DNA from: Escherichia phage vB_ESM-pEJ01 | Length of the DNA: 64,000 nt | Sequence record: OP114734.1 | Strand: one strand, 5' to 3' | Shown here: positions 14,934 to 14,995 of the stretch, piece by piece | Position numbering within the stretch: position 1 is the first letter of the stretch | Layout: the number at the start of each line of letters is the position of its first letter | Notes under the pieces: model-generated | What the model saw: only the letters and a program-made list of their open reading frames with translations | What the model was told of the DNA's origin: nothing | The model's database searches: none | Translations under genes and position numbers: made by a program

Positions 14934-14941
14934 AATAAAAA

Positions 14942-14967
14942 AGCCTCCAATCTTTCGACGGGAGGCA
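14942..14967 (-). promoter_or_regulatory. 5' leader hairpin sequestering the RBS of the ART gene
   Basis: GCCTCC...GGGAGGC stem; GGAGG arm is the only SD for ATG at 14933; T-run follows. Confidence 0.4.
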
Positions 14968-14995
14968 TAATAAAACCATGATAGAGTAGTGTCAA
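14967..14995 (-). promoter_or_regulatory. early-type promoter (-35 TTGACA, 17 nt, -10 TATTAT)
   Basis: Located between gene 56 stop and the hairpin. Confidence 0.5.

Follow-up and report, generated by a model that had tools for sequence, protein, structure and literature searches.

The intergenic region between gene 56 and modB

The DNA analysed here, referred to as the window, is a stretch of 64,000 nucleotides (nt) from Escherichia phage vB_ESM-pEJ01 (sequence record OP114734.1). It shares 99% identity with RB49, GEC-3S, PHB13 and further members of the T4-like Krischvirus group. The subject of this report is a 62-nt cassette on the minus strand, located between gene 56 and a gene for a ModB-like ADP-ribosyltransferase (hereafter modB), which holds an early promoter, a hairpin and the Shine-Dalgarno (SD) sequence of modB. 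The stop codon of gene 56 and the AUG of modB at 14933 are separated by a spacer of 69 nt. Read along the minus strand, this spacer consists of an AT-rich stretch (AAAAATTAG), TTGACA (14995-14990), the sequence between the two promoter hexamers (CTACTCTATCATGGTTT), TATTAT (14972-14967), GCCTCC (14966-14961), then C, GTC, GAAA, GAT and T in succession, GGAGGC (14948-14943), TTTTTT (14942-14937) and ATT, followed directly by the ATG. The hexamers TTGACA and TATTAT are annotated as minus_35_signal and minus_10_signal in the GEC-3S record. The coordinates of these features and of the neighbouring genes are given in Table 1.

Table 1. Elements of the 56-modB cassette and flanking genes, in window coordinates.
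Feature	Position	Strand	Basis or remark
-35 hexamer TTGACA of the modB early sigma-70-type promoter	14990..14995	-	Consensus scan 11/12, 17-nt spacer
-10 hexamer TATTAT	14967..14972	-	Sequence and consensus scan
Hairpin 5' arm GCCUCC, equal to the promoter discriminator (-6 to -1)	14961..14966	-	Directly 3' of the -10 hexamer
Predicted transcription start, C14960 or G14959	14959..14960	-	Inferred from promoter geometry
Hairpin inner part: C.U mismatch, 3-bp helix GUC/GAU, GAAA tetraloop	14949..14960	-	
Hairpin 3' arm GGAGGC, holding the sole SD of modB, GGAGG	14943..14948	-	
U-tract UUUUUUAUU	14934..14942	-	Terminator tail, doubling as SD-AUG spacer
gp61 primase	16564-15536	-	
Gene 56 (gp56 dCTPase)	15527/15521-15003	-	Final gene of the unit upstream of the hairpin
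modB-like ADP-ribosyltransferase, 167 amino acids (aa)	14933-14430	-	PHROG 832 match and alignment to ModB
srd	14368-13613	-	Followed by a Y01A-family gene, then dda

When positions 14966-14943 are present together in one RNA, they form the hairpin GCCUCC-C-GUC-GAAA-GAU-U-GGAGGC, with an outer stem of 6 base pairs (bp), a C.U mismatch, an inner helix of 3 bp and, as its loop, GAAA. For the 24 nt of the hairpin the folding energy is -13.8 kcal/mol (z-score -5.06), a stability equalled by none of 200 dinucleotide shuffles, and the value for the hairpin with its tail is -15.0 kcal/mol. The GGAGG of its 3' arm is the sole SD-like sequence before AUG 14933, from which it is separated by 10 nt (CUUUUUUAUU); a distance of 6-7 nt is the commonest in the window. 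A preliminary description of this locus had claimed that the only SD is held in the 3' arm of a stem, and had proposed folding of the leader RNA as a check; the folding results bear out both the structure and the position of the SD within it. The same description had overlooked that the hairpin, together with the six U residues behind it, is a canonical intrinsic terminator. The coincidence of the two functions is visible in public annotation, in that the Makalu records (Ec_Makalu_002, _003) place a ribosome_binding_site within a 'terminator' feature at the hairpin. A search of Rfam returned no match at the gathering score; the best hit, L10_leader, scored 24.9 bits where the threshold is 44, and it is taken as chance.

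The hairpin as a predicted intrinsic terminator

The anatomy expected of an intrinsic terminator is present in full, namely a GC-rich stem of 9 bp, a loop of the GNRA type (GAAA) and six U residues directly 3'. A simple terminator scanner missed the hairpin because of its internal mismatch, and it was found by direct folding and by a separate scan. The corresponding element of RB49 was listed in a 2006 supplement as the TransTerm terminator 'modB<--56' (RB49 9430-9453, score 100), which translates to window positions 14943-14966 and so coincides with the hairpin exactly. In RB49, this terminator and the early-promoter model Pe:9496 overlap by 8 nt. Our own scan of the minus strand from 20741 to 14966 revealed no other terminator-like hairpin, and the unit closed by the element would therefore span about 5 kb, with genes 61 and 56 among its members. 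Among the approximately ten intergenic terminators of the window, the modB cassette is the only one in which the 3' arm of the terminator is also the SD of the next gene, and the distance from stem to next start codon is 9 nt at modB versus at least 18 nt at the others. It also differs from an ordinary intrinsic terminator in that the promoter of the next gene precedes the terminator, that the predicted start of this promoter lies inside the hairpin, and that the 3' arm and the tail serve as SD and spacer.

Predicted start of the modB transcript

The sigma-70 holoenzyme initiates 7-8 nt after the -10 box, with a start range of 6-9 nt from that box. At modB, the bases found 7 and 8 nt after the -10 box are C14960 and G14959, respectively; a start at G14959 would have a pyrimidine at -1 and a purine at +1. 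In the early-promoter model of Nolan et al. 2006 for RB49, the -10 box occupies positions -12 to -7 and position 0 is the start; the consensus, with C preferred at -3 to -1, is stated there to agree with the 5' end mapping of Desplats et al. The RB49 early promoter Pe:9496 (RB49 9446-9496; supplement of Nolan et al. 2006) corresponds to window positions 14959-15009 when the coordinate offset of 5513, taken from the alignment of the window to RB49, is applied; position 0 of the model falls on window 14960, and the end of the model, RB49 9446, on window 14959. Further guidance comes from the 21 intergenic promoter-like sites of the window, where the sixth, seventh and eighth bases after the -10 box are most often C (14/21), A (15/21) and T (13/21), and the GTCGAAA at 14959 aligns with ATCGAAA, the recurrent start sequence of the early promoters of the window. 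Promoter geometry, the Nolan model and the C-A-T consensus all predict a start at C14960 or G14959, downstream of the hairpin's 5' arm, so that the mRNA made from modB's own promoter would lack this arm. The literature search found no paper on start sites in Krischvirus. No alternative -10 box with usable spacing is present further upstream in the spacer sequence. A TATAAT found in the promoter spacer of relatives was discarded as a candidate, being 6 nt from the -35 box, having no usable -35 of its own and being mutated in the window and in JSE.

Predicted masking of the modB start site

To express accessibility as a number, the free energy needed to unpair the SD in a context from -60 to +30 was computed for the 108 called genes of the minus strand. 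The opening cost at modB is 11.4 kcal/mol, which ranks third of the 108 (median 2.7, standard deviation 2.3); the two genes ranked above it appear to be mis-called starts that lie inside promoter or hairpin sequence. When the region from -15 to +3 is considered, opening costs 14.1 kcal/mol in RNA that reads through from gene 56 and 2.9 kcal/mol in RNA from the modB promoter. An RNA beginning at 14960 or 14959 folds at just -2.3 kcal/mol, with the SD unpaired. In RNA initiated upstream, the SD and/or AUG are paired, with an opening cost of 11.4-14.1 kcal/mol, the highest among the genuine starts of the window, and a large difference between the read-through and own-promoter transcripts is seen only at modB among 25 promoter-proximal genes. 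The SD-masking hairpin of modB is real and is unusual for this genome.

The regulatory logic differs from that of the preliminary description, which had placed the stem at the predicted 5' end of the transcript and had suggested that translation might be conditional or coupled to read-through from gene 56. The 5' arm is instead the promoter discriminator, and the predicted start is 3' of it. Translation is probably dependent on structure, as had been suggested, but in the opposite sense, since the gene's own transcript is predicted to be free of the hairpin. Coupling to gene 56 finds no support, because the read-through RNA is the one that carries the full hairpin and would be terminated or have its SD masked.

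As a separate observation, the next largest difference between transcripts in the window belongs to a gene starting at 19915 on the minus strand (19915-19970, promoter TTGACA at 19970), for which the costs are 8.4 kcal/mol in read-through RNA and 2.5 kcal/mol in own-promoter RNA.

Relation to PeSL cassettes

Composite elements that combine a promoter and a stem-loop are a known class in these phages. According to Arbiol et al. 2010 (PMC2839356), about 50 such elements, termed PeSLs, are present in each of RB49 and phi1 (about 51 in RB49 and 52 in phi1); each has a strong sigma-70-like promoter and a stem-loop that blocks upstream transcription, five placements of the stem-loop are described, and one PeSL stem-loop matched rrnB T1 in termination in a reporter assay. 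The concept was extended to further T4-like phages by Comeau et al. 2014 (PMC4122927), and PeSLs are reported to mediate modular shuffling by a mini-circle model. Effects on translation are not mentioned in the searched parts of either paper (PMC2839356; PMC4122927).

The modB cassette has the make-up of a PeSL, with the AT-rich AAAAATTAG, an early promoter, a stem-loop directly after the -10 box, an SD and an ATG in an RB49-type genome, and it resembles the subclass in which the stem-loop lies just 3' of the -10 box (PMC2839356). The window holds many PeSLs. In the others, the SD stands outside the stem-loop, a U-tract is mostly lacking and the G-rich arm is 5', whereas in the modB cassette the SD is the 3' arm and a tail of six U residues follows; the order of the arms is inverted, with the C-rich arm 5', in comparison with the usual GGGAGU..ACUCCC. 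PeSLs are further characterized by a hyperplastic region beside an ORFan; the modB cassette is instead flanked by the conserved genes 56 and modB, and JSE has an insertion at its edge.

Two side observations concern the other cassettes of the window. The usual PeSLs (e.g. those at 58635, 44878, 43968, 42733 and 260 on the minus strand) have GGGAGU..ACUCCC spanning the -10 box, then (C)ATCGAAA and a separate SD. At 7917-7979, also on the minus strand, the -10 box TATAAT forms part of a terminator-like hairpin as its loop, GGGAGAUUCUC-UAUAAU-GGGAGUCUCCC, which is followed by U4CU4 and folds at -18.2 kcal/mol; the SD of the next gene (GAGG) is located after the U-tract.

Conservation inside Krischvirus

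A DNA pattern search of viral contigs with degenerate arms and a protein-guided scan of metagenomes yielded near-identical cassettes only. The paired positions of the hairpin are unchanged in 14 of 14 related sequences, including an invariant 5' arm, and variation in the hairpin region of these relatives is limited to U to C at the mismatch (metagenomic contig L005) and to the length of the U-tract (14937-14942). The latter is T5 in phi1, Makalu_003 and OZ035808, T6 in the window, RB49, GEC-3S and JSE, and T7 in two metagenomic contigs; such polymorphism alters both the terminator tail and the SD-AUG spacing. The -10 box is TATTGT in one relative (L004).

In contig L005, gene 56 is 81% and modB 79% identical to the window, while the hairpin with its tail is 97% identical; an island of about 190 bp (L005/L011 678-856), which takes in the final 60 nt of 56, the whole cassette and the initial 60 nt of modB, is 93-97% identical. 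A mosaic of this kind would be expected of a cassette that serves as a recombination junction. JSE carries an insertion between 56 and modB, a homing endonuclease gene that lies on the opposite strand (L006 524-1444); beyond it, the -35 box of the modB promoter is exactly the point from which JSE again matches the window (L006 from 1501). The conservation within Krischvirus fits either selection on the cassette or a role as recombination junction, and recombination of the PeSL type may well also act here.

The modB leader in other T4-like genera

The leader of modB was compared in nine other genera, represented by T4 and relatives, S16, Karamvirus, PEi26, phiE142, RB69, JS98, MY02 and X20/Gravdalen. 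In each of them an early promoter of the type GTTTAC(A)-16/17-TATGAT is followed by a hairpin at modB, the 5' arm of which overlaps or abuts the -10 box, and the 3' arm of which comprises the SD and the spacer to the AUG, often including the AUG itself. With the window included, each of 14 sequences, drawn from 10 genera, has a hairpin that pairs the modB SD with sequence at or abutting its own -10 box. In the window this box is abutted by the 5' arm, and in the other genera the two overlap. The T4 hairpin, UAUGAUAGCUUCUG-AAGUAUA-CGGAGGCUAUCAUG, has a non-coding 5' arm (AGCUUCUG) and folds at -15.7 kcal/mol (z -6.0), and z-scores across the other lineages range from -3.3 to -7.6. Opening of the GGAG costs 4.0-13.0 kcal/mol in read-through RNA versus 0.1-2.1 kcal/mol in RNA with its own start, set 7-8 nt after the -10 box.

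The pairing is kept while the sequence changes. Changes in one arm are matched in the other, as in the replacement of AGC/GCU of T4 by GACC/GGUC in PEi26 and the single extra base pair of RB69 and phiE142, and the -10 variants TAGTAT (MY02) and TATAGT (X20) are mirrored by AUACUA and ACUAU before the AUG. In a model-guided alignment, 86.3% of cells are paired versus 34-59% when the partners are slid, and double changes occur at four pairs. In 10 of 10 lineages, each with 1-4 G.U pairs, the fold of the sense strand is more stable than that of the antisense strand, which argues for an RNA structure rather than a DNA palindrome. The CU-rich promoter spacers of modB in JS98 (L016 812-831), RB69 (L046) and phiE142 (L021) also carry CCUCC motifs (cctcctccc, ccctcctc and cccctcctc), and in read-through RNA these might serve as an additional anti-SD.

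When starts in the first 50 kb of T4 were ranked by the same type of cost, modB was the most sequestered, with 18.1 kcal/mol (rank 1 of 87). Gene 49 (16.9 kcal/mol, rank 3) and I-TevII (13.4 kcal/mol, rank 6) are also near the top, and the high rank of these known masked genes validates the metric. Ranks 2, 4 and 5 in T4 (AF158101) belong to motB.2 (start 8161, 17.7 kcal/mol), 39.1 (start 5595, 13.5 kcal/mol) and 62 (start 30905, 13.4 kcal/mol). The modA-type paralogues that lie downstream of modB and have their own GTTTACA-type promoters (L019:411, L037-L042 of Dhakavirus, modA of RB69 in L046 and L021:405 of phiE142) show no hairpin that masks the SD; their leaders fold at -6.6 to -13.8 kcal/mol with the SD free.

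Proposed mechanism and alternative explanations

The arrangement is best read, with an estimated probability of about 0.68, as a cassette of nested promoter and terminator, in which the 61-56 unit ends and transcription of modB begins inside the hairpin, so that the gene's own RNA is free, RNA from upstream is terminated and what remains of it is silent. The hairpin at 14966-14943 and the U-tract at 14942-14934 would form an intrinsic terminator for the upstream unit with genes 61 and 56, and polymerase recruited by TTGACA-17-TATTAT would begin at C14960 or G14959, past the 5' arm. The mRNA made in this way would have neither terminator nor masked SD and would be translated. RNA arriving from upstream, on the other hand, would contain the whole hairpin and mostly stop at the U-tract just before the AUG, and in the remainder that reads through, the sole SD would be locked in a stem of about -14 kcal/mol. 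Synthesis of ModB would in consequence be tied to its own early promoter and insulated from upstream transcription.

A simpler account, which we consider unlikely, is that the hairpin does no more than terminate transcription and merely has a promoter ahead of it, the overlap with the SD being a result of the compact intergenic space with no regulatory role of its own. The canonical anatomy and the TransTerm score of 100 speak for it, as do the many cassettes of this sort in the window and the capacity of PeSL stem-loops to match rrnB T1; moreover, the stem is invariant in the genus, which means that selection for SD masking cannot be demonstrated there. It leaves aside, however, that only this one of the approximately ten terminators in the window holds the SD of the next gene, that its arm order is the inverse of the usual PeSL stem and that nine other genera mask the modB SD with hairpins that have no U-tract and are not terminators, which argues that masking itself is selected at modB. 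A DNA-level role for the inverted repeat, either as a recombination hot-spot of the PeSL mini-circle type or as an operator overlapping the promoter, appears improbable as its main function. The reports of PeSL shuffling, the insertion boundary of JSE at the -35 box and the L005 island of about 190 bp between diverged genes would all be accommodated by it, and a function in RNA could coexist with it; the better folding of the sense strand in ten lineages and the use of G.U pairs are less easily explained, and arm sequences that vary between genera while pairing is kept are unlike a protein operator. Equally hard to sustain is the idea that the promoter's own RNA opens with the full hairpin and that modB is repressed until the structure is melted by a factor, by temperature or by ribosomes on gene 56. 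In its favour, the hairpin is real and does overlap the SD; yet such an RNA would have to start at a distance of just 1 nt from the -10 box, when sigma-70 uses 6-9 nt, and away from the C-A-T start consensus of the phage at 6-8 nt, with no usable alternative -10 box upstream. A full hairpin followed by six U residues would also terminate transcription before the AUG and make the promoter futile, and the stop codon of gene 56, at 69 nt from the AUG, is too far away for translational coupling.

Several points count against the nested cassette. The start position of the modB promoter, the efficiency of termination and the effect on translation are deduced from sequence, and the hint of a T4 modB start given by a published primer (see below) is indirect. 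The SD-AUG spacing of 10 nt is suboptimal. Termination that is nearly complete would leave masking of the SD with little effect, and the overlap could be a by-product of packing into 69 nt. Within Krischvirus there is zero covariation, since the stem is invariant, and recombination at PeSL junctions could also explain the conservation. Across genera, covariation of alignment columns is modest (0.246 versus 0.210 in shuffled alignments, a value reached by 6 of 500 shuffles); this support is weakened by shifts of register between lineages, on account of which a consensus from MAFFT and RNAalifold also has a different outer register and weak covariation. Lastly, a covariance model built without Krischvirus (R2) gave 14 matches in the window at E-values up to 10, none of them at 14934-14995. 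The hairpin of the window is an analogue at an orthologous gene, and its homology to the hairpin of the other genera is not demonstrable.

Known masking systems and RegB

Start sites that are hidden in one transcript and free in another are established in T4. As reviewed by Uzan and Miller 2010 (PMC3014915), the starts of e, soc, 49 and I-TevI (as well as mobE and segB) are masked in long RNAs, and RNAs from promoters within the structure have free start sites; modB is absent from the list of masked genes in that review. The predicted arrangement at modB is alike in that RNA from upstream hides the SD and AUG and an internal promoter gives an RNA without the 5' arm. It differs in timing, because the internal promoters of e, soc, 49 and I-TevI are late and ensure expression that is 'not early, only late', whereas that of modB is of the early sigma-70 type and implies expression 'only from immediate-early promoter'. 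Unlike the masking hairpins of T4, the modB hairpin of RB49-type phages is also a predicted transcription terminator.

A second connection is with the endoribonuclease RegB, which targets GGAG in the SDs of T4 early genes and is inhibited by secondary structure (PMC1702504). Durand et al. 2006 (PMC1702504) reported that the GGAG in the SD of T4 modB is cut by RegB in vivo and that modB RNA is resistant in vitro; a stable structure was implied for modB by comparison with a motB-GGAC RNA (unpublished data of those authors), and cleavage of nascent RNA was suggested. A transcription start inside the hairpin fits the discrepancy between the in vitro and in vivo results and explains it more simply than cleavage of nascent RNA would. 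This likeness bears on what becomes of the mRNA rather than on what the hairpin is. In a preprint of 2024-26, an outward-facing primer was placed on an 'uncapped' T4 modA-modB transcript; it ends at a G located 8 nt after TATGAT, which is compatible with a T4 modB start at that position. The start predicted for T4 modB is G13149 or U13150 (AF158101/NC_000866 coordinates), where the 5' arm has its 3' edge.

Extended to the group, the comparison leads to the tentative proposal, to which we give slightly less than even odds, that in at least ten T4-like genera modB is gated by the origin of the transcript, and that only RNA from the immediate-early promoter embedded in the hairpin is translated. 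If so, early and middle read-through RNA from upstream would go untranslated, with termination added in RB49-type phages, and a toxic ADP-ribosyltransferase would be confined to a brief pulse that ends with the shut-off of early promoters. Over-expression of ModB kills E. coli, and ModA production is very toxic. In T4, the start of modA overlaps the end of modB by 4 nt, from which translational coupling of modA to modB is likely, and ModA would be restricted likewise. The scheme would apply the principle of e, soc and 49 with the opposite timing, and it would explain why T4 modB RNA resists RegB in vitro and is cut in vivo.

The promoter and the terminator had each been predicted years ago and the class of cassette is known, so that the element itself is ordinary. 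Of moderate interest is the conserved design for masking modB, of which no description was found in the literature searched. The start-masking structure of modB appears to be among the strongest in T4-like genomes, with a layout kept across genera, and it is proposed that within a single cassette of 62 nt one operon is closed, the next is opened and cross-talk between them is blocked in both transcription and translation. A restriction of ModB to its own promoter, if it holds, bears on the timing of host takeover, on the RegB results and on the design of compact insulating promoter-terminator parts. ModB itself, which joins RNA chains to host proteins, is of recent interest.

The modB-like gene and its neighbours

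The protein encoded downstream of the cassette matches PHROG 832, 'RNA polymerase ADP-ribosylase', with an E-value of 1e-20, and is approximately 30% identical to the ModB proteins of T4 and JS98. Its N-terminus is shorter than that of T4 ModB (167 versus 207 aa). In an alignment with five ModB proteins, the R-S-ExE catalytic motif (LYRG, SFT, ExE) is present, and R73, S99, E171 and E173 are invariant. Searches of Pfam and NCBIfam with this protein gave no matches; its identity as ModB is settled by PHROGs and by the alignment with T4-type ModB proteins. No other start codon for modB lies in frame between the stop codon of gene 56 and ATG 14933. Met15 was rejected as a start, the GAGGTG in front of it having a spacing of just 2 nt. 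For gene 56, two starts are possible, a GTG at 15527 and an ATG at 15521, and the ATG, which gives a protein of 172 aa, is the one used in related records.

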